Assembly (NCBI RefSeq): GCF_025612915.1
Contig: NC_069115.1
Coordinates: forward strand, 25,727,757 to 25,791,756
Source: Crassostrea angulata
Taxonomy: Eukaryota
Direction: 5' to 3'
DNA: 64,000 nucleotides
A model generated the notes under the pieces. That model did no database searches and was not told where the DNA came from. It worked only from the letters and a program-made list of their open reading frames with translations. Position 1 is the stretch's first letter. Every line of letters starts with the position of its first letter. A program made the translations under genes and the position numbers. Positions 9,681-51,250 of the stretch are shown here, one piece after another.

Positions 9681-10137
9681 TGGTGTACTGAGTGAATGTT
9701 TTCATGGAAAACCAAGAGTAACAAAGCGCAGGAACATTACTACATCTGTCGTTGACTTTTTGAAAGAAAGATAACTCTTTCTCATACATGATGAAAAGAT
9801 ATTTTCGTTTATTTCCATGATTATAATACTGGATACAGCACATTTTTATTTATTTATTTTACATCTACATATCTACTTAATGTTTTTATGTGCAGCAGTC
9901 AAGTGTAATCATGTGACATTTCTTTCTAGACTGATTTTTATAATTTTTTTGCTAAAATTAAACAACAATATCAGATTCATATTTATGTCCGTGGAATGAA
10001 CATATGCTTTGATACTCTACTGAATACAAATTAGCAAAACTTTGAAGTCACTTCTTTTTCCTTATATAAATCTATATGGGTGATAATGCATTATCTTTGA
10101 AAAACGCATGGAAACAATACATAGAAATGCTTCATTA

Positions 10138-15699: not shown

Positions 15700-16430
15700 C
15701 TCTGCAGGCGCCCTATAGGGATCAGTCTATCCATCCATTCTTCCGTCTTTTGGTCCTTCCATCCATCTGTCCATCCAAGATTGCTTGTCTGAAGGATATC
15801 TTCTCTCTCCTTGCCAAATCTGGCTCATACTTCACCTACAGAGTGCCTTTGGGTAATACGTGTGTAATGATCTTGAACCATATTTCTAGAATTAAGGTTA
15901 CGGTCATAGCAGAATTATAAATACAATTCTTTTGCGGGTCATATCTTCTCTCCTTTTTGTCCAGTCTAGGTAATACTTCATTCACAGAGTGTCTACGGTT
16001 GAAGGGTTTGCAGTGACCTTGAATGAAGTTTGTACATGTAGGTCAAAGGCCATGGTCATATAGGACTATGCAAAAATCCTTTTTTCAAAGTATATATTTA
16101 CTTTCTACTTAGCCCTATTTGGCTAATACTTCACATAAACAAAGCTTATGAAGAATGGGTGTGTAGTGACTATGAACCAATTTCAAGGTCAAATGTGAAG
16201 GTCATTGGAGAATTTATTAAAAATCTTTGTCTGGAGCACATCTTTTCTCCCTATGATCCAATCTGGCTCATACTACATGGTGCCTTTAATCAAAGGGTAT
16301 GCAGTGACTTTGAAGTTAGTAGATCAAATGTCAAGGTCATTTGAGATCCAACAAAGTTATATGTCAAGGTCAAACAAAATTCTCAAAAATTCTTTTCATC
16401 CTTATGTCCACTATTTAAGTGGGGCCCTTT
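15700..16430. repeat. Palindrome/CY-rich head followed by ~4 diverged ~150-bp tandem units (ctggctcatacttcac...motif)
   Basis: head ccatccattcttccgtcttttggtccttccatccatctgtccatcc then units starting ~15793, 15941, 16090, 16240. Confidence 0.55.
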
Positions 16431-16861
16431 GAGATGGTCACCATCTCAATGTTGTCTAGTTTGTTTAGCTATACTGCAGTAATCTCTAATTTTCGTTGAT
16501 TAAAACTGTTCTTAATAGCTTTTTATCTGTTCACTTTGTGCGTCATCAAGAGGCAGATGACGTTGTAGTAAGCTGTGCAGCGAGACTGGCCTTTCGCTTT
16601 TATTCTGAGAGTGTAGGATTTTTTTTAATTGATGACAGCGCTGTAAATAATGAATTATGCTGGTAGTTATTATTAGAATAAGGATATTTTAACAGCTAAT
16701 TGATGCATATTTAAATTATTTTAAAGGATTGCATGTCATTTTGATGTCATAATGTGCAATTTTCTATCTTTTTTTTCTATAAATGAATTTCATTGCAGGC
16801 ATAACAGTGCTGCGATTGATTATATAATATAACTGTTATGGACTTTATTATAGGTTGATAT

Positions 16862-17600: not shown

Positions 17601-17625
17601 TGTATTACAGTATTATTATGTCCAC

Positions 17626-18033
17626 CTTCGAAGAAAGGAGGGAATATTGCTTTGCTGCTGCTTGTCTGTCCGTCTGTCTGTCGGTCGGTTGACCAACAAT
17701 TTCCGTTCATTTTCATTTTCAGGGATATTGTAATGATATTTGGTATACAGCTTTATCATGATGATATCTAGAGCAAGTTCGATACTGGGTATGATCGAGC
17801 AATTTTTGACAGAGTTATGCCCCTTGGACATAGAAAAATTCCAAATTATTTGCAGTTTCCACTCATTTTTTTTGCATTTGCAGAGGATGATTATATTGAA
17901 ATGAAATTTAATATGCAGATTTACCTAATAATATATAGGTCAAGGTTGATTTTTGGCAGAGTTATGCACTTAGGTATTGAAAAATTTCAATTATTTGCAG
18001 TTAACATTCATTTTACCAAAGGAGGGGGCATAA
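17626..18033. mobile_element. MITE with TIRs TTATG(T/C)CC...GGGGGCATAA, (GTCY)n and an internal ~155-bp tandem duplication
   Basis: ttatgtccaccttcgaag...gctgcttgtctgtccgtctgtctgtcggtc... ends ...ggagggggcataag; homologous copy 38267-38694; fragment 29898-30140. Confidence 0.65.
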
Positions 18034-18469
18034 GTGTTTCACAAACATCTGTTGTATTGTATCATATGATATATCTTATGACTCAACATTGTATGGTATT
18101 ATAGGATGCAATATCAAACTTTATATTATTGTATTGGTTAACATTATATAAATAGTGCCTGTTTGGGAGGGTAACAGTTGAAATTGACATCCCGAGAAAA
18201 CCATTGTCAACCGACGCGAATTTATTTTGTTATACTGAATGTCTTAATTTTAAAGAAAAGGACTAAGTGCGGTTTTATACAATTTTTGCCCCCAAAATCA
18301 AAGTTTCAGAAAGAGCTTTAAAATAAGGTGAAAGATAGTTAAAATCATATTGGAAATAACGGTGTAAAAGGTTATCACCACAGTGACATCATAATGTAGA
18401 AATGATGTCATGATTATTGCATTATTTTGATAAATTGATGTTTTGTAACAAAATATGGGTGTTTTCCGA

Positions 18470-19150: not shown

Positions 19151-19950
19151 ATTGTCCCCCGCCGCAACGCGGAGCGGGGACATAGAAATGCCGGGCGTCC
19201 GTCTGTGGGTCCGTGTGTCTGTGGGTCTGTGTGTCCGTGCGTCCGTGTGTCCGTCCGTCACACTTTTTTGTAAGCGCTCTCATGCCTACAAATTTTGACG
19301 GATTTTCATCAAATTTATACCAAATGTTTATACAACTCTTACCTTGGTCAAGTTCGAAAATCAGCATTGGAGGATACTTTTTGTTGGAGTTATGGGACTT
19401 TGACCACAATAATGACTCCCTTTTATCCAAAAATTGACCTTGTAAGCACTCTCATGCCTTCAAATTTTGACGGATTTTCATTAAATTTATACCAAATGTT
19501 TATACCACTAATACTTTGGTCAAGTTCGAAAATCAGCGTTGGTCGATACTTTTTGTTGGAGTTATGGGACTTTGACCACAATTATGACTCCGTTTTATCC
19601 AAAATTTGACCTTGTAAGCGCTCTCATGCCTACAAATTTTGACGGATTTTCATTAAATTTATACCAAATGTTTATACCACTAATACTTTGGTCAAGTTCG
19701 AAAATCAGCATTGGTCGATACTTTTTGTTGGAGTTATGGGACTTTGACCACAATAATGACTCCGTTTTATCCAAAATTTGACCTTGTAAGCGCTCTCATG
19801 CCTACAAATTTTGACGGATTTTCATTAAATTTATACCAAATGTTTATACCACTAATACCTTGGTCAAGTTCCTAAATCAGCCTTGGTCGATAGACTCGAT
19901 ACTAGTATACTGCTTGACCGGCGGGGGACCCAGGAATTCTATTCTTGTTA
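19150..19950. mobile_element. Satellite-carrying element, copy B (palindrome 19154-19181, (GTCY)n, array, tail 19890-19950)
   Basis: same head, same 3.5-unit array and same tail (tactagtatactgcttgaccggcgggggacccaggaattctattcttgtt) as copy A at 615-1530. Confidence 0.65.
19270..19870. repeat. 172-bp tandem repeat, 3.5 units (unit starts 19270, 19442, 19614, 19786)
   Basis: same monomer as 729-1330. Confidence 0.9.
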
Positions 19951-25243: not shown

Positions 25244-26640
25244 AGCTTAAGGGGATTCAAAGCTGTAAAAAATTAAGAACCATGCCCTTTTGCAAAGGGA
25301 GATAATTAGGAATTTATGAAAATTTTCGAGAAATTTTCAAAAATCTTCTTCCCACGAACCATAAGACCAGGAAAGCTGAAACTTGTGTGAAAGCATCCTC
25401 AGGTAGTGTAGATTCAAACTTGTGAAAATCATGACCCCCGGGGGAAGGGTGGGGCCACAATGGGGGGTCGAAGTTTTACATATGAATATACAGAGTAAAT
25501 CTTTAAAAATCTTCTTCTCAGAAACTAATCAGCCAGGAAAGCTGACACTTGTGTGGAAGCATCCTCAGGTAGTGTAGATTCAAAGTTGTGAAAATCATGA
25601 CCCCCGGGGGTAGGGTGGGGCCACAATGGGGGGTCAAAGTTTAACAAAGGAATATATAGAATAAATCTTTAAAAATCTTCTTCTCAGAAACTAATCAGCC
25701 AGGAAAGCTGAAACTTGTATGGAAGTATCTCAGGTAGTGTAGATTCAAAGTTGTGAAAATCATGACCCCTGGGGGAAGGGAGGAGCCACAATGAGGGGGG
25801 GGGGGGGTCGAAGTTTAAAAAAGGAATATATAGAGTAAATTGTTAAAAAATCTTCTTCTCAGAAACTAATCAGCCAGGAAAGCTGAAACTTGTGTGGAAG
25901 CATCCTCAGGTAGTGTACTAGATTCAAAGTTGTGAAAATCATGACCCCTGGGGGTAGGGAGGAGCCACAATGAGGGGGGGGGGGTCGAAGTTTAAAAAAG
26001 GAATATATAGAGTAAATTGTTAAAAAATCTTCTTCTCAGAAACTAATCAGCCAGGAAAGCTGAAACTTGTGTGGAAGCATCCTCAGGTAGTGTACTAGAT
26101 TCAAAGTTGTGAAAATCATGACCTCCGGGGGTAGGGTAGGGTAGGGCACAATGGGGGGGGGGGTTGAAGTTTAACATAGGAATATATAGAGTAAACCTTT
26201 AAAAATCTTCTTCTCAGAAACTAATCAGCCAGGAAAGCTGAAACTAGTGTGGAAGCACCCTCAGGTAGTGTAGATTCAAAATTGTGAAAATCATAACCCC
26301 CCGGAGGTAGGGTTGGGCCACAATGGGGGGGGGGGGGGGGGTCAAAGTTTAACATGGGAATATATAAAGTAAATCTTTAAAAATCTTCTTCTCAGAAACT
26401 AATCAGCCAGGAAAGCTGAAACTTGTGTGGAAGCATCCTCAGGTAGTGTAGATTCATCAAAGTTGTGAAAATCATGACCCCTCTCAAAGTGAGTCTCCGG
26501 TCCTGAATTTTTTCCCAAAATAACTTAGCAGGTTACAATTTTGATCTCTCAAAACCTTTGATCCCTTGAAGTCAAACTGCAGTCCGGTTATTTATAATCT
26601 ATTGTTTTTTACTCTCGATACCTAGAAGTGGCTGTGTATA
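25085..26640. mobile_element. Satellite-carrying element with double-hairpin head (agctcacctgagct, agctcaatgtgagct), (GTCY)n and a 165-bp array
   Basis: head 25087-25250 recurs at 41864, 44381, 62190, 62380; tail 26490-26640. Confidence 0.6.
25335..26483. repeat. ~165-bp satellite, ~7 units
   Basis: monomer ...aaatcttcttctcagaaactaatcagccaggaaagctgaaacttgtgtggaagcatcctcaggtagtgtagattcaaagttgtgaaaatcatgacccccgggggtagggtggggccacaatggggggtcgaagttt... Confidence 0.9.
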
Positions 26641-29534: not shown

Positions 29535-30179
29535 GTAAGAACACATCTTTGCCGGTGTGTGAATCTTATAGCTATATACTTTAAAAAGCAAATCTGTCTA
29601 ACATCTATTGTCATCATTAAAAAACCCAAGTCAGTGGCAAAAAAAGTAAATATTAGAACTTTTTTGATATATCTTTAATTTGTATACTCTCATAGAATAC
29701 CCTTTTCATCTCACATTTGCATTTATTTATAGAGATCGATGCTGTAAAAAACGCAAAAAAGTATCTTAGAGTCCAAAATCTGGTATCTGTCCTACAGAAG
29801 AATTCTAAATATAATAAAGAAAAAATTAAATTTTAGAAAAATATGTTTAATCGCCTTCAAAAGTTCTACAATTGTCCATAATAAGATGTGATTCTTTTTA
29901 TACCCCTCTTCAAAAAAGGGAGGGCATGTTGCTTTGATGCTGTCTGTCTCTCTGTCGGTTGGTCCACCAATGGTTTACATTCATTTTCTTCTTTGCAAAG
30001 ATTGCACATATTGAGATTTTGTATGCAGATTTTTTATAATAATATCTAGGTCAAGTTTGATTTTGGGTATGATTAAGCAATTTTCGACAGAGTTACAGTA
30101 CCGATCAGATCCAACCTAATAGAAAGTAAACCGGTGGTCACTCCCTAGGAACATTTTTCACAACATTTCCTTAACTTGT

Positions 30180-30237
30180 AGAATTATGTCTCCCCTTTCA
30201 AAGGGGAGACATATTGTTTTTGTCGACTTTCTTATTC

Positions 30238-30279
<42 letters not shown>

Positions 30280-32821
30280 CGTTCTGTTTCTTTTTCTTCG
30301 CTATTTTTCTTTTTTTTCCAACAAATTTTGTGCACGCGATTTCTCAAAAATGACTCAACCGATTTTCATCAAACTTTCAGATATGATAGATACGGATCTA
30401 AACTTTATACGTAATTTTTTATTTTGATGACGTCATTTCCGTTTTTGATATATTGACGTTTTAGCGATTTTCAGAGGGTCGGCTTGTCCTGGGATCTTCT
30501 CCTTAACGATTGAAGATATTGAGTTCAAACTTTCAGGGATTGTAGTCGAAAGATTGTAGATGTGTCTTTAGGTATTCATTTTTGTCTGACTCAAAAGGCG
30601 CTGAAGCTCGCCTGGACCCGAAAATTGAGATTAAAAAAACGTCGTTATTTTTTCTGGTTTTCTTTGTTTATCTCTTTTCTGAAAAATATTTTGTTAAGAC
30701 ATGTAATGTAAAAAACGTTTGTATTTACATGACCTTTTCTTTGAAATCAAGAAAAAGGGGCTGGCTCCTCAAATAAGGGGTCAAAAGGGCTCTAAAGTCT
30801 TTAATCTGTAGCTCTTTACTGAGAGATATTTTGTTAAATGTTATAGAAGCAGATATGTTTATCTCACAGTTATGTATCCATGCAATGTAATGATTTTGTC
30901 ATGTATTACATAACTAGGGGTTTTTAGGGGCCAAAAGTATAAAATTTTGATCACCCATATCTCAGAAAGGAAAAATATTTTGTAATGCAATACAGAAGAA
31001 AAGTTGTTCAAAATGATGTTCTTAACGATATGCAACCTTCAAAATTTCGTCGAACGGCCACTATAAGGGAATAAGGGATCGGCCCCTAAAACCTTCTTTC
31101 TCATATATCTCCAGAATGCTAACGAATTTCTAAACACTTGTTGAACAAAATATGTATAGAATTAGATGACCTTTCATATGATATCAAGAAAAAGGGGCTG
31201 GCCCCTTAAATAAGGGAACCAAAGGGCTCTAAAGTCTTTTACATATATCCTTTTACTCAGGGATATTTTGTGAAATGTTTTAGAAGCAAATATGTTTATC
31301 TTACATTTATGTATCTAAGTAATGTAAGGATTTTATCATGTGTTATGTAATTAGGGGTTTTTAGGGGCCAAAAGTCCGAAAATTTGATCACCCATATCTC
31401 AGAAAGGAAAAATATTTTGAAATGCAGTATAGAAGAAAAGTTGTTCAAAAATAATGTTCTTAACGAAATGCAACCTTCAAAATTTCGTCAAACGGCCCCT
31501 ATAAGGGGATAAGGGATCGGCCCCTAAAACCTTCTTTCTCATATATCTCCAGAATGCTAACGAATTTCTAAACACTTGTTGAACAAAATATGTATAGAAT
31601 TAGATGACCTTTCATATGATATCAAGAAAAAGGGGCTGGCCCCTTAAATAAGGGAACCAAAGGGCTCTAAAGTCTTTTACATATATCCTTTTACTCAGGG
31701 ATATTTTGTGAAATGTTATAGAAGCAAATATGTTTATCTTACATGTATGTATCTAAGTAATGTAAGGATTTTATCATGTGTTATGTAATTAGGGGTTTTT
31801 AGGGCCAAAAGTCCGAAAATTTGATCACCCATATCTCAGAAAGGAAAAATATTTTGAAATGCAGTATAGAAGAAAAGTTGTTCAAAAATAATGTTCTTAA
31901 CGAAATGCAACCTTCAAAATTTCGTCAAACGGCCCCTATAAGGGGATAAGGGATTGGCCCCTAAAACCTTCTTTCTCATATATCTCCAGAACATTAACGA
32001 ATTTCTAAACACTTGTTGAATAAAATTGTTTAGAATAAAATGACCTTTCAAATGATATCAAGAAAAAGGGGCTGGCCCCTTAAATAAGGAGACCAAAGGG
32101 CTCTAAAGTCTTTTATCTGTAGCCATTTACTGAGAGATATTTTGTGAAATGTTTTAGAAGCAAATATGATTACCTTACAGTTATGTATCCAAGAAATGTA
32201 AGGATTTTATCATGTGTTATGAAATTAGGGGTTTTTAGGGGCCAAAGGTCCCAAAATTTGATCAACCAGACCTCAGAAAGGAATTTTTTTTTAAAATGCA
32301 GTATAGAAGAAAAGTTGTTCAAAATAATGTTCTTAACGAAATGCAACCTTCAAAATTTCGTCAAACGGCCCCTATAAGGGGATAAAAGGATCGGCCCCTA
32401 AAACCTTCTTTCTCATATATCTCTAGAACGATACCGAATTTCTAAACACTTGTTGAACAAAATGTGTTTAGAATTAGATGACCTTTCAAATGATATCAAG
32501 AAAAAGGGGCTGGCCTCTTAAATTAGGGAACCAAAGGGCTCTAAAGTATTTTACCTATATCCTTTTACTCCGAGCCATTTTGTTAAAGGTTATTAAAGCT
32601 AGATTAGGTATAATACGTTAATATATCCTAACAACATAATGATTTTCTCATCTTTTCTATCTTAATTGGAAGAGTGCAAGTATTTAAAAAAGCAATGTCA
32701 GAGAACTTATAAAAAGAGATACCAAAAAAAAAAAAACATTAGTACTCCACTCCTTTTTTCATATCATGTTTTCTTGTCGAAAATCAAAGTCAATGACGTC
32801 ACATATCCTTATAATAATCGT

Positions 32822-33990: not shown

Positions 33991-34063
33991 GTCTCAAAAG
34001 CTCAGTGGTTAGAGCGCTGGCACGGTACGTCAGAGGCCCTGGGTTCGAGTCCCTGTTGAGACT
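33991..34063 (+). tRNA. tRNA-like sequence (cloverleaf with anticodon GGU, C33); probable tRNA pseudogene or tRNA-derived SINE head
   Basis: acceptor GTCTCAA/TTGAGAC 7/7 bp; A box AGCTCAGTGG and B box GGTTCGAGTCC intact; anticodon stem CTGGC/GTCAG with one G-T; loop ACGGTAC has C where U33 is expected; T stem has one mismatch. Confidence 0.45.
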
Positions 34064-34326: not shown

Positions 34327-36466
34327 GTAATAAAATATTGATTTGCATTGGTACGGTCTTCAGGCAAAGAGAGCAATGTGCAACAAATGTTGTGCCGAAA
34401 TTTCAGATCTGCCACTGTTATGTGCAACTATTGACGTTTTTTGAGAACAAGTCATACAATGTTTCCCCTAGCATCGCTGTGAACAAAAAATGATGGCTAT
34501 TGTTTGGAATGAAATATGATAAGACAGTCGATGATTTTCAAAAAGTTTCTAGAGTTTAAAATAAAGGCAAAAGAGTGGTAAACTTCTGAGAGGTAAATTT
34601 TAGCCAAAATGGTGAATGTAGACAGTGAAGCGACGAGGCAAAAGTTTTGAACTCTTTGCATGGTGATTGTGAAGATGAAAATGATTTTGATGGATTTAAT
34701 TCTGCAGTACATATACTGTGGAATCATTAGATTTCGTGGTGGCTCAATTTTCGTGGAATTCGTGGGTACCTGTCATCCACGAATTAACATCCTCCACGAA
34801 TTATATATTAGGGTTATAAAGTCATATTTCGTTTTGTAGGTATAAGAAAATACACGAAATTACGTCCCCACGAACCTGTAAAATTTCAGCAATCTACGAA
34901 AATTGGCCCCCACGAAATCTGATGATTCCACAGTAACTTCAGAGATGTTAATTTATTGATTGATGTGCCTAAGATGGACTTTATGCCAAAAAATATTTTA
35001 TTTAAGTTTTGGTTTTAGGCAAGGACTCCATTGGTCTTATATATGTAGTTGTAAGAGGTGCTGAAAATCAAGTCTCAACCAAGACTCATTGGCATAGCCT
35101 TTGGCATACACTGCCAACCCTCTAACCAATGAGGTATAATTGAGGCATGATATGTTGACTGACATTTGTACCCGTTAACCTGGTGCCATATTCTTCGTTT
35201 TTACAGATATTTATACCCCTGCAAACGAAATTTAGGGGGGAACATTGGAATTGCCCTGTTCGTCTGTCTGTAGACACAATTTTTACCCCCCTCCCTTTAT
35301 AAACTATTAAACTTCTTCATGGAATTGTCTCAACATTTGTACATATGTTAACACTATCTGAAAATGTGCTCCTGCAAGTATTGTTCAGAAATCACACAAG
35401 ATTCAATGATTTTATGACAGTTTTCATTTTTCTTGTCCAATATATTGTACGCTAATGTTGAAAAGCAACCGAAGGGAGGTAATCCTATTCCTTAATAGCA
35501 AACACACTAAAAATGTTAGATCTGAAATAAATATATTTATAGAGGGTTTTTTTGTCCTTGCTTCATAACCAGATATATGTTTTATAAGTACCTGTATTTT
35601 ATTAACTTTCAATGCCAAATATTTGTTTGTCAACGATAAATTCTTAGGAGCTAATAAGAACATGAAAGACAAGTGTGGCTGAATTTATTTGTCCCAAGGG
35701 GGGCATTATTTGAGCCATAGTTTAGATGGAACATGTGTTTAGGGAAAATTAATAATTTGTCAAATCAGTAGTGTAGATTCAAAGTTCAAGTGGGGCCACA
35801 ATGGGGGAGTCGAAGTTTTACATAGGAATATATAGACTAAATCTTTGTTTTAGTGCATGTTTCTTCTGTTTAATTGTTTACAATTTCTATTTGCTAACCA
35901 TATTTGGGTGTTACATTTCAAATTATAAGCAAGATACAAAGCTTTATACACAGTTATGAGACCATTTTTTGGTTTACATTTTAAATGCTGAATAGGAAAT
36001 ACCAAGTTAAAAATCTAGCAAAATTGTGAGCTCTAGCTGTATCTTGCTTATAATTCTACGATTGACGTTAATTAAAAGATTTTGGTTGTCAATGATCATT
36101 AGAAATGTCTCGCTAAATGTTAAATACTTCTACAAAAAAAGTAAAAGATGATATGCTGTAACAACTCTCTTTACAGGATGAATTATATGTATTCCACATT
36201 AATTTTCATAGTTTTTCAGACACAAGTAAATAAAAACAACACCGTAAGAACAGTTTCCATAGTTTTGTTACGGGGATAAAGGCATAAGACTGTTCCTGAG
36301 AAAATATTACAGTGTAAATGTAGTAGTATTTTCTTTGTATGATAGCAAGGAAAACGCCACGTCTTAGGTTCTTTATATTTATTATAATTATTTCATTATG
36401 AACCCTGTAAAAAGGTTAACAATAGCAATTTTAGCATACATTATAACAACAAACATATTATATTTA

Positions 36467-39115
36467 GGGCCCTGCAAGGATTTGCGGGTGCCCTATAGTA
36501 ATCACTCTGTCCGTCCATCCTTCTGTCCGTCCGTCTGTCACTCTTCCGTCCACAAATTTTTTGTTTTTTTCTAATAACTTTTTTATGGTTGCCCAATCAA
36601 GTCCAAATTTGGTATGGTAGTTCAGTAGGCAGAAATGCATATTTTGATGCTAAGTTTGGTTCTCTATGTCTTCTGGTTTGGAGCTGGGGTGGTGGGGTAG
36701 ATTCCTTAACTATACATAAGAATGAATGGGCAAGAGAGATAACTGCTGATAATGTTACCATTGTATACTAGGAAGGTTGTGCAATATTTGTCCTTTGGGA
36801 TTAATGAACCTTCCACAGGAAGAAAATCCTAAGCTTTATCTTTATCTGTCACATTGAGATTAATTACTGCACTGCCTGTGTCTGCAAATGAACTTTGTTT
36901 TGAAGTTAAGGTCAATTTTGAATGATGTGTAGTATTGTGTACATTCTTTGAAATATGGATTTAAAATATAATATTCATACTTTATTTTGGTTAAAATACC
37001 GTACACAATGATTTATGATAATTTTATTGAATTCTAAAATCAAGATATATATTAAGATATCCTTTTTCACTATTTTATTTTTAATTATAATTTATTTCAT
37101 TTTTTTCTGCCTTAATGCTGTTAATTTTAACAGGTAATCAGATAATAACCCCATTCTGTCATTTCTGAAAAAACAAATCTTATTGTAAATTTAGAAGAAA
37201 AGGATGAGAGAGCAGAACAATTAACCCCCTGAGATTAATTATCTTGCCTGCTGCAGAAAATTTAGAGGCTTATCTCTATCTGTCATATGAAGATTAATGA
37301 ACACCTTTGTCTGCAACTGATGTTTGTTTTGAAGTTGAGGTCAACCCTGGGTGATACAATGTATTTGCATTCACTGAAGGCTTGCATTTTGTAAAACATC
37401 TGTTTAAATCTTTTTTAACGAGGCCGAGTACAGAACGAGTACGCACGCTTTCGCGCAGCGTTTCATTTGTATTGTGACGTCATCTTTTTGCTTTGTTGAC
37501 GCCATGGCGTGATGGTTTCAACTGCAGATATTCAGCGAAATTTATTGAAAATAGCTCGTTTGATGCGTAAAATTGATATTATATTGTGGAATAAACATAA
37601 ATGTCTCAAAGTATAAGCTATATTTGGGCTCGGGTCGAAAAACGTGAAGAGGGTTCAGCAAGCCTAGCCCTCTGTCACGTTTTCTTAACCCACCTAAATA
37701 TAGCTTAAATCATATATTTCAAGACAGTAGCCATGTATTTTATATTAATGACCTTTAATGTGTGATGTTATATATTTATTTATTACTAAAATATGTCTGA
37801 ATGTTTTAATAATATTTTAAAGATCACCATTTTCATCTTTGTCAAATAAAAAATAGCCATTATCTGAAAAACTGGTAAATTGGGCATACAAAAAACAACT
37901 TTGATAAGACCCCTGGAACAAACCAGGAGGTAAAAGGATTTTTTTATTTCACCATTTGATGCCTTTTAGCAATGACTTTAATATGTAGAATAGAAAAAGA
38001 AATCCCTAGGGCAGAAGTTTAAGAAAATTGTTAAAAATGTGCAAAATTGATACATTTCAAGCAAAATCCCATATGGTCCTATGTTAAAAGTTAACAAACT
38101 TTGAGATGACCCCTTAAACAAACAGTGTGGTAAATGTCTTATTTTTTTATCTGAAAATAATAATTATAACAGTAGAAATTCATGTAAAAATTTTCGTTAA
38201 AAAAATCTAGGGCAGAAAAAATTAGACCCAGCCTCAGCCTCATTAAATACACATTTAATTTAGTTTTTATGCCCCCTTCGAAGCTTTGCTGCTGTCTGTC
38301 GGTCAGTCTGTCGGTCCACCAACAGTTTCCGCTCATTTTCTTTGCAGAGGATGAACATATTGATATCAAATTTGGTATATAGGTTTATCATGATAATATC
38401 TAAGTCAAGTTCGATATTGGGTACAATCGAGCAATTTTCGACAGAGTTATAGCCCTTGGACTTAGAAAAATTCTAGTTTTTTGCAGTTTCCGCTCATTTT
38501 CTTCGCAGAGGATGAACATATTTAAATGAAATTTGGTATATAGGTTTATCATGATAATATCTAGATCAAGTTCGATATTGGGTACCATCGAGCAATTTTC
38601 GACAGAGTTATGGCCGTTGGACGTAGAAAAATAACAGTTATTTGCAGTTTACGTTCATTTTCTTTGTGGATGTTTCCAAGGGAGGGGGGCATAAATGTTT
38701 CACAAACATCTCTTGTTTTTATAAGACATGAGGTTATCTCTGTTTTATGCAGATACATGGTGACTATTTAGAGTTTTTGGACATTCAGGAATTTTCTTGA
38801 AATTTTAAAAATACAGTTGTTACTTATAATTTTCATATTTTTTTTCAAATGTAATCAAATTAAACTTTCATTCCATGAGCTGCACCCTGTTATTTTTACC
38901 CCTCAGTTTAACACTTTAATTGTTTGATGAAAATCATATCCTGACTACAAATCATGAGATCCTATATATTGCAGTTCTTTACATCTTATGCCGGGCATTT
39001 ATTTTTCATCATTGTTAATGTAAAGAGGATGGAATTCAAATTGTTTTTCACTTCGGTATATTAATTGTCATAGCGGGGCTCTTCCTGATTGGTCAGTTTT
39101 CTAGTAATACAATGA
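36467..39115. repeat. Family X copy 2, interrupted (36467-37416 and 38715-39115) by a 1.3-kb composite insertion
   Basis: collinear with 10138-11391 except for 37417-38714. Confidence 0.8.
37417..38714. mobile_element. Composite insertion inside family X copy 2; its 3' part (38267-38694) is a TTATGCCCCC-TIR MITE with two ~155-bp tandem units
   Basis: absent from copy 1 between tgtttaaatctttt and tataagacatgaggttatc; MITE homologous to 17626-18033. Confidence 0.65.
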
Positions 39116-41906: not shown

Positions 41907-43150
41907 ATTTTGTCTGTCGTCCATCTGTCTGTCCGTCCGTCAGTCCATATGTCCATCTGTAAACTTTTCACATTTTCAGCATCTTCTCAAGAAATACTGG
42001 GCCAATTTCAACCAAACTTAGCACAGATCATCATTAGACAAAGGTGATTCAAAGTTATGAAAATTAAGGGCTAAGGGAAGACAATTAGAAATTAATAAAA
42101 ATTTTTGAGAAATATTCAAAAATCACCTTCTCAAGAACTATTAGTCCAGGAGAGCTGAAACTTGTGTGGGAGCATCCTCAGGTAGTGTAAATTAAAAGTT
42201 GTAAAAATCATGATCCCTGGGGGTAGGGTGTGGCCACAATGGGGGGGGGGGGGTCGACATTTTTCATAAGAATATATAGAGTAAATCTTTTAAAAATCTT
42301 TTTCTCAGAAACTAATCAGCAAGGAAAGCTAAAACTTGTGTGGAAGCATCCTCAGGTAGTATAGATTCGAAATTGTGAAAATCATGATCCCCAGGGGAAG
42401 GGTTGGGCCACAATTGGGGATCAGAAGTTTAACATAGGAATTATTGAAAGCCTATGTAAATGTCAACAATACGGTGTGTTGATGTATCTATTTCGTAAAT
42501 GTCTGTTACATATCCAATACCGTCCCCTGATCACCCATCATGATCCCATGATCCATGATCATGATCCATGATCCCATGAAAATCATGACTCCCATGGGTA
42601 GGGTTGGGATGGGAAGTTTAACATAGGAATATATAGAGTAGATCTTTCAAAATCTTCTTTTCAGAAACTAATTAGACTGGAAAGCTTAAACTTGTCTGGA
42701 GGCATCCTTAGGTAGTGTAGATTCAAAGTTGTGAAAAACATTACCTTTGGGGTAAGGATGGGGCCAAAATAGGTGGGAGGGTTAAAAATTTTACATGTGT
42801 AAATATGTAGGGTTAATCTTTAAAAATCTTCTTTTCAGAACCTAATCAGCCAGGAAAGCTTAAACTTGTGTGGAAGCATCCTTAGGTAGTGTAGATTCAA
42901 AGTTGTGAAAAACATGACCCCCTGGGGGAAGGGTGGGGCCACAATGGAGGGAGGGGGGAGAGGGGCAACAATAGGGGAGTTGAAGTTTTACATCTATACT
43001 ACTATTTTAAAATTAATAGACTCGAATTTTTGGGCTTTAATACCGAGAAATTGGAAGAATTCTGTCTTCTGTTTTATATATTTTATTAATAATATATTTT
43101 AAACATCATTGGTACTTGAAGATTACCAATTAGTTTTTATTTTTTCTCAA
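41864..43150. mobile_element. Satellite-carrying element (double-hairpin head, (GTCY)n, 165-bp array, tail 42960-43150)
   Basis: head identical in design to 25087-25250; tail reverse-matches 3540-3690. Confidence 0.6.
42100..42960. repeat. 165-bp satellite, ~5 units (one unit carries a catgatcc-rich variant at 42520-42590)
   Basis: same monomer as 25335-26483. Confidence 0.85.
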
Positions 43151-44542: not shown

Positions 44543-45190
44543 TCATATTTAGGCAAAGGGGATTCAAAGTTGTGAAAATTAAGGGCCACACCCGTTTTCA
44601 AGGGGAGATAATTAGAAATTAATGAAAAATTTCGAGAAATTTTCAAAAATCTTCTTCTCAAGAACCAGAAAGCCAGGAAAGCTGAAACTTGTGTGGAAGC
44701 ATCCTCAGGTAGTGTAGATTCAGAGTTGTGAAATTCATGACCCCCAGGGGTAGGGTGGGGCCACAATGGGGGGGGGGGTCGAAGTTTAACATAGGAATAT
44801 ATATATTAAATCTTTAAAATCTTCTTCTCAGAAACTAAACAGCCAGGAAAGCTGAAACTTGTGTGGAAGCATCCTCAGGTAGTGTAGATTCAAAGTTGTG
44901 AAAATCATGACCCCTGGGGGTAGGGTGGGGACACAATGGGGGGGGTCGAAGTTTTACATAGGAAAATATAGTTTAAATCTTTAGAAATCTTCTTCTCAGA
45001 AACTAATCAGCCAGGAAAGCTGAAACTTGTGTGGAAGCATCCTCAGGTAGTGTAGATTCAAAGATGTGAAAATCATGATCCCCGGGGGTAGGGTGAGGCC
45101 ACATTGGGGTGGGGTGTTAAAGTTTTACATAGGAATATAAAGAGTAAATCTTTAAAAATCTTCTTCTCAGAAACTAATCAGCAAGATGAT
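44381..45190. mobile_element. Satellite-carrying element: head 44381-44560 and 165-bp array (~3.5 units, 44600-45190)
   Basis: same head and monomer as 25085-26640. Confidence 0.6.
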
Positions 45191-47204
45191 TCTTTATAAT
45201 TGTTAAGACTTTGGCTCCAGGACAATTCTTCGGCCTCACAAGAAGATTCTGAGTTTGATGTAGCTAAATATCCCATATATAAACATTTGTAAAGGATCTT
45301 TTTGAGAACTGCAATACTCAACATGTGATATGACTATAAAATTGAAGCAGGCAGCTATTTTTTCAGTATTACTGTATTGAGTTATTGCCCTTGATTTATT
45401 GATTCTTGATTATTTTTAATTAATGCATCCACTGTTAACCAATTATTGTGATGATTATTTCTATACAATAATAAATATTCAATGTATAATATAAGTTGTT
45501 CTGCATAAGTAGTTTTGGGTTAGGCCGGATATGTTTGTTTATCTTTGATTTCCAATTTATAGATACTATGAATTATTTTAGGCCTGCACATAAATAGGGA
45601 CAATGTCTATTGCATTTCGTTGAGCGACTGTTTGGGTTTAACCTTGAACAGGTATGGATAGATTGAGTGTGTGGACATCCTTGCTCTATCTAATCCTCGT
45701 GTTTTCTAACCTATGATACAGAGTGTGCAGTCATTCCTGCCCTGTCTCGCATTAATGTAGTCCATCCATAACTATTATATTTCATATCTAATAGATTGCA
45801 AGTTTGATCACTAAAATCTTAGTGTGATTATAAGGGGTTTATTAAAAAATAAAGTTTCACCTTTGAAATCTTTAAAAAAATTAATTTTAATAAATTTATC
45901 ATATGTTGAAGTTAACATTGAAGTCTATGGGAAAAATGCATTTTTAAATATATTTCTTTAGTACAAGTAATTTTCTCACATTTCTCTTGGTAAAAAGTTG
46001 CAAAAGCTTTCTCCGTATTCAAATATGCGAAAATGATTCATAGTTTACCATACATATTTTCAGAAAATGATTTTATCAATTTTCCTAAAGGGCAGACAAC
46101 TCTGTAAAAAAGTTTTAAGTGCACAAAGTTCATTTAATTGACTACATACATACACCCAAGTTTGGTCTATGTCAGACTTATAATAGCTTTAAAATATGTA
46201 TTTGATGTAGTATAGGTCAATCAAAATTGTTAAATTCACCTTAGTTATGGATGGACTACTTAATACAAGTGTGCGGTCATACCTGCTTGTATTGGTGGTG
46301 GTTGCGGCGGAGCACTAGTGTATGGTCATCCCTGCTGGTGTTCTGGCCTCTCTAGCGCAAGTGTGCGGTACTCCCTGCTTGCATTAGGTTGAGCTGTTGG
46401 CGCAAGTGTGTGGTCATCCCTGCTTGCGTTATCCCTGCTTGCGTTAACGTTGGTACCTGTTCAGTTGCGTAGGTGTGCGGTCATTCCTGCCTGCGTAACG
46501 TTGAGTCCCTATATATGTGCAGGAGCAGTGATTAAAGTCTGCTCTTGTAAATAATGGCAGCAATTAGGGCTATCCGAGTTCCAAGGGGGAAAAGTGGATT
46601 TTATTTATACAGGATCTACATGTATTATTGTACATTGTCCAGATTGCTTGTATTATGACTCCATTAACCCTTAGGCTGCTGCATTAATTTTCGCCAAGAT
46701 GGCCGCCACTGCTGAATTAATTATTGATAATTAATGATAATTGACCATTGATTTTTAAAATAATGTATCTCAGTAACTATTAATGCTACAGGTACCAAAC
46801 TTATATTAAAATGTAAGAGAAAATGTTGAAGATTTCAATTCAATGCTCCTTTTCCTCATAATATTTGTAATTATCAATCCAGGTAAGTTCAAAGGTGAAA
46901 ATTAATTAAAATTTTATGCAATCTATAATTCCATTCATATAATCTCTTTTACTTTCATATTTCAGTCCCCAAATGACTGTGAAAGCTTCTCCTTATATTA
47001 ATAAGTCATACATTGTTGGATTTTTTTTATTCAGATCATTTTTGAACGACAGGTAAACAATACAATTCACAGGTAAAATAACAAAAAATAAAGAAATTAT
47101 CCATACATTTTGCCATTGTTTATCATTGATTGTCCATGAAAAGTTTGTCACATGTAACAAAGTTTTACAGATAGTTTTGCACAGAGTTTCACACACAGTT
47201 TTCA

Positions 47205-47384
47205 ATCACTATCGGAGTCACTACCTGCGCCAGGTAATAACACGGCTCGGTAATTCTGCATGGAATGATACACACGGAAACAGTCAGGAACACAGAGCAC
47301 TTTTTCACAGTCAGGACACCAGAAAGAAGTCTGCTTTCTCTTGAAGCCCTGTCTGGCAGTTTTCTTTGGATTACAGGCATAACA
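47205..47384 (-). other. Cysteine-rich C-terminal domain of the transposase, encoded in a different frame (…RQCYACNPKKTARQGFKRKQTSFWCPDCEKVLCVPDCFRVYHSMQNY…)
   Basis: C-x2-C…C-x2-C…C-x3-C…YH pattern typical of piggyBac CRDs; in frame only if ~10 nt are removed at the tandem duplication 47383-47409. Confidence 0.7.
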
Positions 47385-48996
47385 TTGCCTGGCTTTGCAT
47401 TGGCTTTGCTGGTATGTTCTCTGGGAAATGACGTTCCATTAGACGGGCAGCTTTGTCACCGGTGTGTTTTCGTCCTCTGGATTTGTTTGGTTTTGGAGCG
47501 TCAGGGGCTTCTTCAATCAGTGACCTAGCTAAGGCAATCTTAAAGTCATGGCTGTTGAGTTTCTTCTCACTAAACTTCTTGTACAAGAGGTACGAGTTCA
47601 CAATGCACAGGTTGAACAGGTGAAAAAACAGTTTCTTGTACCATTTGGTGGTCTTCCGAAGGCAGGAATCATACTGGTTGATCTGGTCAGATAAGTCAAC
47701 ACCTCCCATCTTTGAAACATAGTCCACAATACAGGCTGGTTTTGCAACAAACTCGTTGTTTCTGTCCCTCTTGCTCAAAACTGCCATGGTGGCCTCATGA
47801 ATGGTGGATAGCATGTGGACATCCCGCTTGTCGTGGTACTTCACTGCTAACAGCTGGGACTCCTCGTTCCTCCTGAAGATTACTTGAGATGTTTGTAGTT
47901 TCTGTTTCATCTTTATGGCTTCTGGGACACCCTTCCTGTTTTTCCTCAATGTTCCACAGGCATAGGTGTTGTGGACTCTCAACTCCTCGAATAACTCCGG
48001 AGATGTATAGTAATTGTCCATATACACATGATGTCCCTTGTCCAGTAGTCCACATCTGGTAAGAAGTCCAACCACAGTCCTTGTTGTGACAGTTTTCTCT
48101 TCTCCAATTCCAATAGCTTCAGCATACTGGGTACAGGGGGTGCTTCCCGTGTAGATGTCGAATCCAAGACAGTAGCCGGACTTGGCCTCACAAACTTGGT
48201 ACAGCTTGATTCCGAATTTGGTGGGCTTTGCTGGGTTGTACACACGAAATCTCAAACGTCCTTTCCATGCACAAGTGGCTTCATCAAAACTCAAGTCTTT
48301 ATCAGGGGAATAAACATCACTAAAGGCTGTCATAACGTTGTTTATGAAGGGCCTGACCTTGTATAAGGCATCAAAACCATCTTGTCCTCTGGGAATTTGC
48401 TGCTCGTTGTCCGTGATGTGGAAATTACTCATGATTGACAAGAATCGGTCCCTGGACATCGTGTTCCGAAAGAATGGGGTGTCCTGCACTTCATCTGTTG
48501 ACCAATAGTCTTGAACATCACTTTTCTGCACAAGTCCCATGCTAATAATGATGGCGAGAAACACTTTCATCTCTGCGAGGTTCACGGGACGCCATTGTTT
48601 CAAGCGACTGTTCCTGCTAACATTCTCGGACTGCGAGCGTCTTTCGGCGTAGATGTTGGTTTGCTGAACGAGAATTTCCATGAACTCATCACTTACAAAC
48701 AGTTTGAGAAACGATAGAGGTTCGTCATTCTCCATTTCAACGTTTAGTTTTTCTTCTCTGGTGAATGGGGCAATCAATGGCGCAGAGTCTGTACGCGACC
48801 AGCCTTCCTCGAGATCGGCGTCATTATCCCGGTCATTCCCAGGCACAAAGTCCGACATAGGAACATAAGTCAACACATTAATGTCTCCAAAGTCAAGCAC
48901 TGCGGGATTAAATCCATCAAAATCATCTTCGTCCTCACTATCACAGTTAAAAAAGTTCAAAACTTCTTCCTCATCGCTCCAGTCAACATTCGCCAT
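47371..48996 (-). CDS. piggyBac-family (DDE_Tnp_1_7-type) transposase, 541 codons; catalytic core complete, C-terminal CRD out of frame
   Basis: family hallmarks KPTKFGIKLYQVCEAKSGYCLGFDIYTG, GTLRKNRKG, HHVYMDNYYTS, SKMGGVDLSDQ, KWYKKLFFHLFNLCIVNSY, RHFPENIP; acidic N-terminus. Confidence 0.85.
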   Translation of the reverse strand: MANVDWSDEEEVLNFFNCDSEDEDDFDGFNPAVLDFGDINVLTYVPMSDFVPGNDRDNDADLEEGWSRTDSAPLIAPFTREEKLNVEMENDEPLSFLKLFVSDEFMEILVQQTNIYAERRSQSENVSRNSRLKQWRPVNLAEMKVFLAIIISMGLVQKSDVQDYWSTDEVQDTPFFRNTMSRDRFLSIMSNFHITDNEQQIPRGQDGFDALYKVRPFINNVMTAFSDVYSPDKDLSFDEATCAWKGRLRFRVYNPAKPTKFGIKLYQVCEAKSGYCLGFDIYTGSTPCTQYAEAIGIGEEKTVTTRTVVGLLTRCGLLDKGHHVYMDNYYTSPELFEELRVHNTYACGTLRKNRKGVPEAIKMKQKLQTSQVIFRRNEESQLLAVKYHDKRDVHMLSTIHEATMAVLSKRDRNNEFVAKPACIVDYVSKMGGVDLSDQINQYDSCLRKTTKWYKKLFFHLFNLCIVNSYLLYKKFSEKKLNSHDFKIALARSLIEEAPDAPKPNKSRGRKHTGDKAARLMERHFPENIPAKPMQSQAMLCL

Positions 48997-49287
48997 TTTG
49001 TCTCAAATTCAAAACATTTCTCGGAAGTTTACCGCTCTCTAGTCTTTATCTAAAACTCTGGAAAACTCTAGAAACTTTCCGAAAACATCGATTGACCAAT
49101 CATATTTCATTCCTAACAATAGCCATCGTGATTTCTTTTCAAAACGAGGCTTGAGGAGGTCTTAGATAACACGTACATGAAAAACGACAATAGTCGCGCG
49201 CAGCAGTGGTGGACCAGAAGTATCGGCGCGACAATTGTCGCGCGTAGCAGTCTAAGGGTTAAGCTGACTTTATCATACCTATTGTTC

Positions 49288-49869: not shown

Positions 49870-51250
49870 AGTAGGAAAATAAAGAGTAAATCTTTAAAAA
49901 TCTTCTTCTCAGAAACTCATCAGCCAGGAACGCTGAAACTTGTGTGGAATCATCCTCAGGTAGTGTAGATTCAAAGTTGTAAAAATCATGATCCCCCCAA
50001 GGGTAGGTTGGGGCCTTAATGGGGGGGGGGGGGGGGGTCGAAGTTTTACAAAGGAATATATTGAGTAAATCTTTAAAAATCTTCTTCTCAGAAACTAATC
50101 AGCCAGGAAAGCTTAAACTTGTGTGGAAGCATCTTCAGGTAGTGTAGATTCAAAGTTGTGAAAATCATGATCCCTGGGGGTAAGGTGTGGCCACAATTGG
50201 GGGTCGAAGTTTAACATAGGAATATATAGAGTAAATCTTTTAAAATCTTCTTCTAAGAAACTAATCAGCTAGGAAAGCTGAAACTTGTGTGGAAGCATCC
50301 TCAGGTAGTGTAGATTCAAAGTTGTGAAAATCAAGATCCCCTGGTTAGGGTTGGGCCACAATGGGGGTGTTGATGTTTTACGAAGTAACATATAGAGTAA
50401 ATCTTTAAAAATCTTATTCTTAGAAACTAATCAGCCAGGAAAGCTGAAACTTGTGTGGAGGCATTTTCAGGTAGTGTAGATTCAAAGTTGTAAAAATTAG
50501 ATCCCCGGAGGTAGGTTGGGCTACAAAGAGGGAGGGGGGGGGGTCAAAGTTTAACATAGGAATATATAGAGTAAATCTTTAAAAATCTTCTTCTCAGAAA
50601 CTAATCAGCCAGGAAAGCTTAAACTTGTGTGGAAGCATCTTCAGGTAGTGTAGATTCAAAGTTGTGAAAATCATGATCCCTGGGGGTAAGGTGGGGCCAC
50701 AATTGGGGGTCGAAGTTTAACATAGGAATATATAGAGTAAATCTTTTAAAATCTTCTTCTAAGAAACTAATCAGCTAGGAAAGCTGAAACTTGTGTGGAA
50801 GCATCCTCAGGTAGTGTAGATTGAAAGTTGTGAAAATCAAGATCCCCTGGTTAGGGTTGGGCCACAATGGGGGTGTTGATGTTTTACGAAGTAACATATA
50901 GAGTAAATCTTTAAAAATCTTATTCTTAGAAACTAATCAGCCAGGAAAGCTGAAACTTGTGTGGAGGCATTTTCAGGTAGTGTAGATTCAAAGTTGTAAA
51001 AATCAGATCCCCGGAGGTAGGTTGGGCTACAAAGAGGTGGGGGGGGGGTCAAAGTTTAACATAGGAATATATAGAGTAAATCTTTAAAAATCTTTTCCTC
51101 AGTTACTAATCAGCCTGGAAAGCTTAAACTTGTGTGGAAGCATCCTTAGGTAGTGTAGATTCAAAGTTGTGAAGATCATGACTATTCGGGGTAGGGTGGG
51201 GCCAAAATGGGGGAGGGTTTAAAGTTTTACATAGGAATATATTAAGTTTT
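49870..51250. repeat. 165-bp satellite, ~8 units
   Basis: same monomer as 25335-26483; begins ~610 bp from the piggyBac right end. Confidence 0.9.

Follow-up and report, generated by a model that had tools for sequence, protein, structure and literature searches.

A probable Helentron-derived repeat of Crassostrea angulata interrupted by two separate insertions

HINEs are Helentron-associated non-autonomous elements with a left flank containing a 5' subTIR, an IR, and a microsatellite (GTCY, GTCC, or GTCK), a central region of tandem repeats, and a right flank with a 3' subTIR and a palindrome, and they insert at T-rich or TT sites without a target-site duplication (TSD) (PMC7492417; PMC4067079). 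They have often been misannotated as MITEs, as noted by Thomas et al. 2014 (PMC4067079), and the lepidopteran "MITEs" that carry (GTCY)n (Coates et al. 2011) have since been reclassified as derived from Helentrons (PMC4067079). Repbase lists the Cg_HINE elements of Crassostrea gigas (Vojvoda Zeljko et al. 2020, PMC7492417) as Helitron-N*_CGi.

The locus described here lies in a window (the whole 64-kb stretch of Crassostrea angulata DNA that was analyzed) and comprises two copies of a 1.25-kb host element, the second of which is interrupted by inserts A and B (Table 1). The Cg_HINEs come from the same organism group and have the same module order as the host element and insert B, with a 5' subTIR, (IR), microsatellite, array (in insert B), 3' subTIR, and palindrome; their arrays are short, of 140-180-bp tandem repeats, and their T-rich targets show no TSD, as here. 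Their commonest array class has 2-3 monomers, into which insert B fits with 2.1 x 161 bp (PMC7492417). The differences are that the 161-bp monomer of insert B is not Cg170-like and that the host element exceeds the Cg_HINEs in length, with only a degenerate ~433-bp internal duplication in place of a clear array. The bivalve "pearl" and DTC84 elements are tandem-repeat MITE-like elements, and these and the lepidopteran (GTCY)n elements are alike by description in being short and non-autonomous, with inverted ends, a GTCY-type microsatellite, and ~160-bp internal repeats. The DINE-1/HINE elements of Drosophila, mites, and mosquitoes likewise have subTIRs, an IR close to the 5' subTIR, a microsatellite, and optional central repeats, followed by a 3' stem-loop, with a TT target and boundary T strings; the likeness is one of structure, no similarity in sequence being expected, and an autonomous Helentron partner has been demonstrated there (PMC4067079), whereas there is none in this window. 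Insert A resembles non-autonomous piggyBac and Kolobok derivatives in its TTAA flanks, short TIRs, and lack of coding capacity.

The 1.25-kb host element

The 1.25-kb repeat is very probably a non-autonomous Helentron-derived element (HINE) of a kind known from oysters. Its presence in two copies, first proposed in a sequence-only reading of the window, is borne out by BLAST and global alignment, which place the pair at 10135-11391 and 36464-39105 with 95.1% identity over the first 960 bp and 94-96% identity in the distal blocks. Homology breaks off exactly at 10135/36464 and 11391/39105, and the flanks are unrelated and show no target duplication. The sequence TAGGGCCCCGC at 10136-10146 has its complement at 11359-11369 (10/11), forming the subTIRs, and the 11-nt end motif is confined to element ends within the 64 kb (3 matches versus 0.11 expected). 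The 5' subTIR and IR form a hairpin (TAGGGCCCC ... GGTGCCCTA; -9.4 kcal/mol, z = -3.5) that is equaled in none of 200 shuffles, and a (GTCY)n microsatellite is present in the left flank of both copies. The interior contains a single degenerate duplication, 120 bp at 74% identity and 433 bp apart, and TRF detects no tandem array in the host element. The 3' palindrome is present by sequence, but its fold is no better than those of shuffles. Judged from the two filled copies, a T lies 5' of both copies and the 3' end finishes in or abuts T, without a duplicated flank.

Neither the HINE layout of this repeat nor a third difference between the copies (indel C) is described in the sequence-only reading; the 118-bp segment of indel C has no further copy within the 64-kb window.

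Table 1. Positions of the host element copies, the inserts, and related elements in the window
Feature	Position	Strand	Description
Host copy 1	10135-11391	+	Uninterrupted HINE-like element, 1.25 kb
Host copy 1 5' subTIR	10136-10146		TAGGGCCCCGC
Host copy 1 5' IR	10157-10166		AGGTGCCCTA
Host copy 1 (GTCY)n	about 10177-10217		
Host copy 1 degenerate internal repeat	10466-10585 / 10899-11013		
Empty site for A in copy 1	11084-11087		GTAA, versus TTAA on each side of A in copy 2
Empty site for B in copy 1	11105-11112		Unbroken run of 8 T
Host copy 1 3' subTIR	11359-11368		GCGGGGCCCT
Host copy 1 palindrome	11371-11382		CTGACtgGTCAG; 9 nt before element end
Host copy 1 tail			TTTTCTAGT
Full-length relative of B	17617-18058	+	73% identity over 453 bp
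3'-truncated relative of B	29899-30098	+	
Host copy 2	36464-39105	+	Interrupted
Host copy 2 5' subTIR	36465-36475		TAGGGCCCTGC
Host copy 2 IR	36486-36495		
Host copy 2 (GTCY)n	about 36509-36540		
Left TTAA of insert A	37415-37418		Putative target-site duplication
Insert A	37419-38242	+	824-bp non-coding mobile element
Host segment between inserts	38243-38266	+	24 bp; 22/24 match to 11084-11107
Insert B	38269-38715	+	~447 bp, most likely a HINE, within T-run
Insert B 5' subTIR	38268-38276		TATGCCCCC
Insert B (GTCN)6	38294-38317		
Insert B tandem repeats	38323-38664		TRF: 161-bp period, 2.1 copies, 91% matches
Insert B 3' subTIR	38684-38693		GGGGGGCATA
Insert B palindrome	38695-38709		ATGTTTcacAAACAT; then tail CTCTTG and T's
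Indel C	38845-38962		118 bp in copy 2 versus 12 bp (11237-11248) in copy 1
Host copy 2 3' subTIR	39073-39082		GCGGGGCTCT
Host copy 2 palindrome	39085-39096		CTGATtgGTCAG
Host copy 2 terminus	last base 39105		TTTTCTAGT
Window piggyBac	46668-49258		TTAA-CCCTTAGGCTGCTGC...GCAGTCTAAGGG-TTAA; DDE_Tnp_1_7 E = 1e-88

Inserts A and B in copy 2

Copy 2 carries ~1.3 kb that is absent from copy 1, as had been claimed, and this is split into inserts A and B. In the global alignment the extra DNA falls into two blocks, 37415-38242 and 38267-38715; the 24 bp that separate them are collinear host sequence and begin with the 4-bp TTAA on the right of insert A. The copy 2 junctions read directly as TTAA-A-TTAA against GTAA in copy 1, and as T5-B-T5 against T8. 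Inserts A and B are two separate insertion events, 24 bp apart, since host repeat lies between them and their signatures differ (TTAA versus a T-run). The sequence-only reading had instead placed a single composite insertion between tgtttaaatctttt and ttataagacatgaggttatc; this does not hold, as copy 1 has 28 bp between these strings, 24 of which (11084-11107) align with 22/24 matches to 38243-38266, and there are two insertions, 37419-38242 and 38269-38715, on either side of this collinear segment. The empty sites of copy 1 are clean (GTAA and T8) and without the deletion scars that the same reading had proposed looking for, and the assignment of copy 2 as the interrupted and copy 1 as the uninterrupted state is supported.

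Insert A is a mobile element distinct from and unrelated to insert B; whether 37417-38266 is part of the proposed MITE family had been left as a question, and 37419-38242 proves to be an element of its own. Its ends, CGAGGCCGAG and CTCAGCCTCA, are inverted at 8/10 positions, and TGACGTCA and the palindrome ACGCCATGGCGT lie within its conserved 5' ~300 bp. Insert A also has an internal hairpin of 95 nt (37614-37707) and two degenerate ~200-bp units (37890-38029 and 38086-38223). A second copy spans 640 bp at 93.9% identity in a metagenome contig (L001), where the match starts precisely at TTAA-CGAGG, preceded by a flank that differs from that of copy 2; this upstream flank is similar to another window repeat (16082-16445), and the contig is therefore probably oyster DNA. 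The putative TTAA target duplication is judged from one filled/empty pair and one additional 5' end (that of L001); the duplication could instead be TA or TAA, or the TTAA could belong to the element. There are no further copies in the viral contigs scanned, and the 3' end of insert A used as a query gave no match in the genome contigs scanned.

Several other identities for insert A were considered and set aside. The canonical Helitron arrangement (A|T target, 5'-TC...CTRR-3') fits no junction placement on either strand by inspection, and a retroposon with a TTTT/AA target is not in keeping with ends of which neither has an A-rich or simple-repeat tail. A tRNA-derived SINE has no support, as Rfam on the whole window reported only a tRNA at 33991-34063, with nothing inside insert A, insert B, or the host element. 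The internal palindrome of insert A has one genome-contig match, in an Anaerolineae MAG; the similarity does not extend beyond it, and the match is attributed to chance. Four spurious open reading frames that span or lie inside insert A, insert B, and the host element returned no record in an exact look-up in public assemblies.

Insert B is most likely a HINE of a different family from the host element, judging from its layout. It is flanked by T5 at 38264-38268 and T5 at 38716-38720, leaving its boundaries ambiguous by a few T's, and it entered a T-rich or TT target without a recognizable TSD, a TT duplication being indistinguishable from T's carried by the element. Both subTIRs are present and recur as the ends of the relative at 17617-18058; a microsatellite is followed by tandem repeats, as in HINEs. 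By reference to the empty site in copy 1, the inserted DNA reaches 38715-38720, 22-27 bp beyond the 3' subTIR, and includes the palindrome. Much of what the sequence-only reading had said of this 3' part stands: it is a discrete mobile element with inverted ends (TATGCCCCC and GGGGGGCATA), its GTCY-type tract is the (GTCN)6 at 38294-38317, and it is of the same family as the element near 17.6 kb (73% over 453 bp, with identical ends). The two tandem units are also real, but their TRF period is 161 bp and not ~155 bp, and the MITE label is to be dropped, as the inserted segment passes the 3' inverted repeat by 22-27 bp with a palindrome and T-rich tail and has no recognizable TSD.

The 5' IR is lacking in insert B, for which the alignment opens a gap of 17 columns opposite the AAGGAGGGAATA and AAGGGAGGGCAT of the 17.6-kb and 29.9-kb relatives, respectively; judging from this alignment, the loss is a copy-specific deletion and not a family trait. 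The relative at 17617-18058 keeps the 5' IR (TATGTCCACCTT cgaaga AAGGAGGGAATA), the microsatellite, two tandem units, and the 3' subTIR and palindrome TGTTTcacAAACA, and that at 29899-30098 has, besides the 5' subTIR and IR (TATACCCCTCTT caaaa AAGGGAGGGCAT), the microsatellite and a portion of a single tandem unit. At 5-6 bp, the 3' palindromes are short and thermodynamically no different from shuffles. Insert B may correspond to Cg_HINE_8, which has a 162-bp monomer and a GTCY-type microsatellite, and six conserved k-mers of the 161-bp monomer do not occur in the available portions of the supplements of two oyster repeat papers. An additional match to the end motif of insert B at 35697 is not followed by a palindrome and is ascribed to chance.

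History of the locus and its alternatives

The history that we consider very probable is that of a HINE host in two transposed copies, followed by two unrelated insertions into copy 2. Copy 2 would have reached its own site first, with A and B entering later, 24 bp apart, in an AT-rich stretch. Insert A would most likely have arrived by cut-and-paste through a DDE transposase acting in trans, and insert B would most likely have been mobilized in trans by a Helentron Rep/helicase, with a rolling-circle-type single-strand mechanism that does not duplicate the target; the 64-kb window has no Helentron Rep/helicase open reading frame, and its only long one is the piggyBac transposase. The 118/12-bp indel C would have arisen later, as a deletion in copy 1 or a small insertion in copy 2.

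A single composite element (A, the 24 bp, and B) that arrived in one event would explain why A and B are adjacent and jointly make up nearly the whole length difference between the copies, but it is extremely improbable in light of the collinearity of 38243-38266 with 11084-11107 (22/24), the differing junction signatures (TTAA and T-run), the relatives of B at 17.6 kb and 29.9 kb, which are not accompanied by A, and the occurrence of A in contig L001 with another flank. TTAA-type cut-and-paste transposons, piggyBac among them, can leave no footprint on excision, and the copy 1 site is intact and GTAA/TTAA-like, as it could be if copy 2 were ancestral and A and B had each been precisely excised or deleted from copy 1. 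Such a double loss is nonetheless very unlikely, as it calls for two precise events, independent of each other and separated by 24 bp, one being the loss of a rolling-circle-type element, and, the copies being paralogous and transposed with unrelated flanks, A and B would have to have been in the master copy; insertion after transposition takes fewer events. The window shows only two copies of the 1.25-kb repeat, lying on one and the same strand, which is compatible with segmental duplication of ordinary sequence, but the sharp ends of homology, unrelated flanks, end-specific motif, and 5' hairpin argue for a transposed element, and duplication is a highly improbable origin for a repeat whose ends bear the full HINE set of end-specific subTIRs, 5' IR hairpin, microsatellite, 3' palindrome, and T/T flanks.

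For insert A itself, descent from a classical TTAA superfamily, as a piggyBac- or Kolobok-derived MITE, is a tentative possibility and somewhat doubtful. TTAA flanks insert A at either end in copy 2 and marks the start of the homology in L001, an intact-looking piggyBac lies at 46668-49258 within the same window, and Kolobok elements, which have a TTAA TSD and 5'-RR ... YY-3' termini, are abundant in bivalves (PMC9587614). However, assuming a TTAA TSD, the terminal dinucleotides of insert A are 5'-CG ... CA-3', matching neither the 5'-CCC ... GGG-3' of piggyBac nor the RR ... YY of Kolobok, and a TA or TAA duplication would instead suggest Tc1/mariner or PIF/Harbinger. A derivative of the window's own piggyBac was rejected, as there is no sequence similarity between the two and the piggyBac terminus, CCCTTAGG..., is unlike the ends of insert A.

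Orientation of HINEs and significance of the locus

The window is dense with HINEs. Its 166-bp arrays reach 97.8% identity with the CL1/Cg170 arrays of C. gigas (PMC7492417 supplement), which marks it as DNA of an oyster, Crassostrea/Magallana gigas or a close relative. All HINE-type 5' ends with microsatellites in the 64-kb window (11/11, nested insert B included) share one orientation, whereas other repeat families in the window are found in both, and the oyster survey reports HINEs in both orientations genome-wide (PMC7492417). Helentron-type single-strand integration, or retention thereafter, could be strand-specific relative to replication or transcription in the region; the pattern may also simply come from chance, or from selection within a single long transcription unit. 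A joint reading, in which HINE integration or retention is strand-specific and insert A represents an undescribed TTAA-targeting lineage, as its termini fitting neither piggyBac nor Kolobok would suggest, is unlikely.

The locus is a nested transposon insertion of a known kind, ordinary for this genome, and it matters little beyond annotation, in which the "MITE" label of insert B is corrected to HINE. It leaves two small leads, the unusual ends of insert A and the one-way orientation of HINEs in the window. Mobile elements here carry short satellite-like 161-bp arrays, as already published for C. gigas. The locus provides a worked example of oyster HINE insertion, with a paralogous empty site showing entry into a T-run, and it shows that HINEs are themselves targets for further insertions.

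Junctions of two copies of a 1.25-kb repeat

The AT-rich window (33.7% G+C) contains an ~1.25-kb repeat twice, as the sequence-only reading had proposed and as BLAST against the window and then global alignment bear out. Copies 1 and 2 are 95.1% identical over the first 960 bp and 94 to 96% identical in the distal blocks, and their homology breaks off sharply at either end, with unrelated flanking DNA. The extra DNA of copy 2 had been taken for a single 1.3-kb composite insertion, but the global alignment yields three differences, of which the first two are parted by 24 bp (38243-38266) that match copy 1 (11084-11107) collinearly at 22 of 24 positions. Nor does copy 1 run straight from tgtttaaatctttt to ttataagacatg, as had been stated: 28 bp separate these strings, most of which recur in copy 2 between the inserts.

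The copy 1 junction reads CTTTT-GTAA-ATACACAGTTAATTTAG-TTTTTTTT-ATAAGACATG, and that of copy 2 reads CTTTT-TTAA-[CGAGGCCGAG ... CTCAGCCTCA]-TTAA-ATACACATTTAATTTAG-TTTTT-[ATGCCCCC ... GGGGGGCATAA ATGTTTcacAAACAT CTCTTG]-TTTTT-ATAAGACATG, so that the first insert (insert A) is bracketed by TTAA. Both insert A and the second insert (insert B) fall in one AT-rich 45-bp stretch of copy 2. Neither empty site of copy 1 is scarred, so the deletion scar that the earlier reading had named as evidence against an insertion is absent.

The third difference, indel C, was overlooked in that reading. A portion of the 12 bp in copy 1 is similar to an inner piece of the 118 bp in copy 2, which suggests that copy 1 underwent one or two deletions, although indel C could be either a copy 1 deletion or a copy 2 insertion.

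Features of the window, by window position
Feature	Position	Strand	Details
Copy 1	10135-11391
Copy 2	36464-39105
First gap	37415-38242		828 bp, one TTAA counted in; global alignment
Insert A	37419-38242		824 bp; TTAA either side; empty site in copy 1, GTAA
Second gap	38267-38715		449 bp; global alignment
Insert B	38269-38715		within T-run; T5 + T5 filled, T8 empty (copy 1)
Indel C	38845-38962 vs 11237-11248		118 bp in copy 2, 12 bp in copy 1; alignment
Insert B 5' subTIR	38268-38276		TATGCCCCC
Insert B microsatellite	38294-38317		(GTCN)6
Insert B tandem units	38323-38664		161 bp x 2.1 copies, 91% matches
Insert B 3' subTIR	38684-38693		GGGGGGCATA
Insert B palindrome	38695-38709		ATGTTTcacAAACAT, then tail CTCTTG + T
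Insert B relative, full length	about 17617-18058
Insert B relative, truncated	29899-30098
Host element 5' subTIR	10136-10146		TAGGGCCCCGC
Host element 5' IR	10157-10166		AGGTGCCCTA
Host element 3' subTIR	11359-11368		GCGGGGCCCT
Host element palindrome	11371-11382		CTGACtgGTCAG; tail TTTTCTAGT
HINE 5' ends	640, 10136, 17617, 19180, 20380, 25090, 36465, 38268, 41890, 44395, 62390	+
Cg170-type arrays	25331-26481, 42110-42955, 44637-45185, 49872-51242		166-170 bp
172-bp arrays	727-1330, 19268-19892		x 3.5, 93-95% matches
piggyBac element	46668-49258		TTAA at 46664-46667 and 49259-49262
tRNA gene or tRNA-like sequence	33991-34063	+	Rfam RF00005, 54.6 bits; sole Rfam match in the whole window
ORF fragments closely upstream of copy 1	8881-9186, 9294-9680	+

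HINE layout of insert B and its host

Helentron non-autonomous elements (HINEs) have been defined for oyster (PMC7492417) and, with DINE-1, more generally (PMC4067079). Their 5' end carries a subterminal inverted repeat (subTIR) with a complementary inverted repeat (IR) close by, the left flank a microsatellite (GTCY, GTCC, or GTCK in several Cg_HINEs), the center a short array of satellite-like repeats, and the right flank a 3' subTIR and then a palindrome; targets are T-rich or TT sites, with T strings at the boundaries and no target-site duplication (PMC7492417, PMC4067079). Insert B had been called a MITE, but its DNA, read from the empty site, runs 22 to 27 bp past the 3' inverted repeat, a pattern that fits a HINE rather than a classical TIR-bounded MITE. 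It is without the 5' IR, and alignment places a 17-column gap where both window relatives have one. A HINE-like 5' end, TATGTCTCCCCTTTcaAAGGGGAGACATA (30185-30215), adjoins the truncated relative; a 437-bp x 4.3 tandem array (30725-32599, 91% matches) lies ~500 bp downstream of it and may be the central repeat of the same element.

The 1.25-kb repeat (host element) appears from its sequence to have the same layout as insert B. Its subTIR/IR hairpin folds at -9.4 kcal/mol (z = -3.5), and it has a (GTCY)n tract, a degenerate inner duplication (120 bp, 74% identity, spaced 433 bp), and a T at either flank with no duplication. Its end motif is confined to element ends within the window (3 matches versus 0.11 expected). 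On their own, the short 3' palindromes do not fold better than shuffled sequence; what gives them weight is their position and their recurrence across families.

The window contains 11 HINE-type 5' ends with a GTCN microsatellite behind them, from at least five families. All are on the plus strand and none on the minus (two-sided binomial p ~0.001, if the 11 ends are independent), whereas other repeat families of the window occur in both orientations; genome-wide, oyster HINEs are found in both (PMC7492417). Several 166- to 170-bp arrays are detected by TRF, and the Cg170-type arrays are up to 97.8% identical to the C. gigas CL1/Cg170 arrays of Vojvoda Zeljko et al. 2020 (PMC7492417). This identity marks the window as oyster DNA, belonging to C. 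gigas or a near relative. Three of the Cg170-type arrays (25331, 42110, 44637) follow one and the same HINE left flank, TTTTTAGCTCACCTGAGCT...AGCTCAAGTGAGCT plus a GTCY microsatellite. Both 172-bp arrays sit behind a HINE left end, TGTCCCCC(A/G)CCGCaacgcGGAGCGGGGACA plus a GTCC/GTGY microsatellite, and the elements containing them share 93% identity. Nested insertion into HINEs is already known from published work, as are oyster Helentron derivatives with GTCY microsatellites and 160-bp central repeats.

Insert A and other mobile elements

BLAST finds no further copy of insert A within the window, and insert A has no Rfam match. Its first 20 nt led to a second copy in JGI metagenome contig Ga0209555_10141484 (L001), which holds 640 bp of it at 93.9% identity. 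The similarity opens precisely at TTAA-CGAGG with different DNA upstream, marking insert A, on sequence grounds, as an independent multi-copy mobile element outside insert B's family, which answers the question, raised in the earlier reading, of whether the 5' portion of the extra DNA is separate or belongs to the MITE family. The upstream flank of L001 (6-324) is similar to a window repeat (16082-16445) in three blocks of 73 to 92%, so the contig, from an environmental sample, is probably oyster in origin.

The ends of insert A are inverted at 8 of 10 positions (CGAGGCCGAG / CTCAGCCTCA), its best-conserved stretch is the first ~300 bp, containing TGACGTCA and the palindrome ACGCCATGGCGT, and its 3' half comprises two degenerate ~200-bp units. 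An imperfect 95-nt internal hairpin (37614-37707; DNA fold -25.3 kcal/mol, z = -7.3) has arms TAAGCTATATTTGGG / CCTAAATATAGCTTA with TA on either side. The L001 copy retains this hairpin, differing by one indel and one substitution; it may represent a nested foldback or mini-MITE of some age, or else a structure that serves a function in the element. Given a TTAA duplication, the termini are 5'-CG...CA-3', fitting neither the CCC...GGG ends of piggyBac, including that in the window, nor the RR...YY termini of Kolobok (PMC9587614); judged from one filled/empty pair and one additional 5' end, a TA or TAA duplication instead is possible. Readings as a canonical Helitron, SINE, or retroposon have no support, as the termini do not fit, the tail is absent, and there is no tRNA-like part.

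The window piggyBac is apparently intact, with inverted ends CCCTTAGGCTGCTGC / GCAGTCTAAGGG, duplicated TTAA, and an uninterrupted 541-aa ORF (47371-48996, minus strand; Pfam DDE_Tnp_1_7, E = 1e-88); insert A and this element have no sequence relation. One ORF fragment upstream of copy 1 matches a Mutator-like transposase (PF20700, E = 2.5e-8) and the other PML_C below threshold, and they are probably a decayed MULE-type element.

Order of events

The collinear 24-bp spacer refutes a joint arrival of inserts A and B as one composite, and losing both precisely from copy 1 would take more events than gaining both in copy 2. A segmental duplication as the origin of the two 1.25-kb copies is contradicted by their sharp ends, unrelated flanks, and complete set of HINE hallmarks. 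The sequence comparison shows what appear to be two paralogous HINE copies, the second of which afterwards gained inserts A and B independently. By analogy with the literature, a TTAA-duplicating DDE transposase would have moved insert A, and insert B and the host element would have been moved in trans by Helentron Rep/helicase proteins, by a single-strand, rolling-circle-type route without target duplication.
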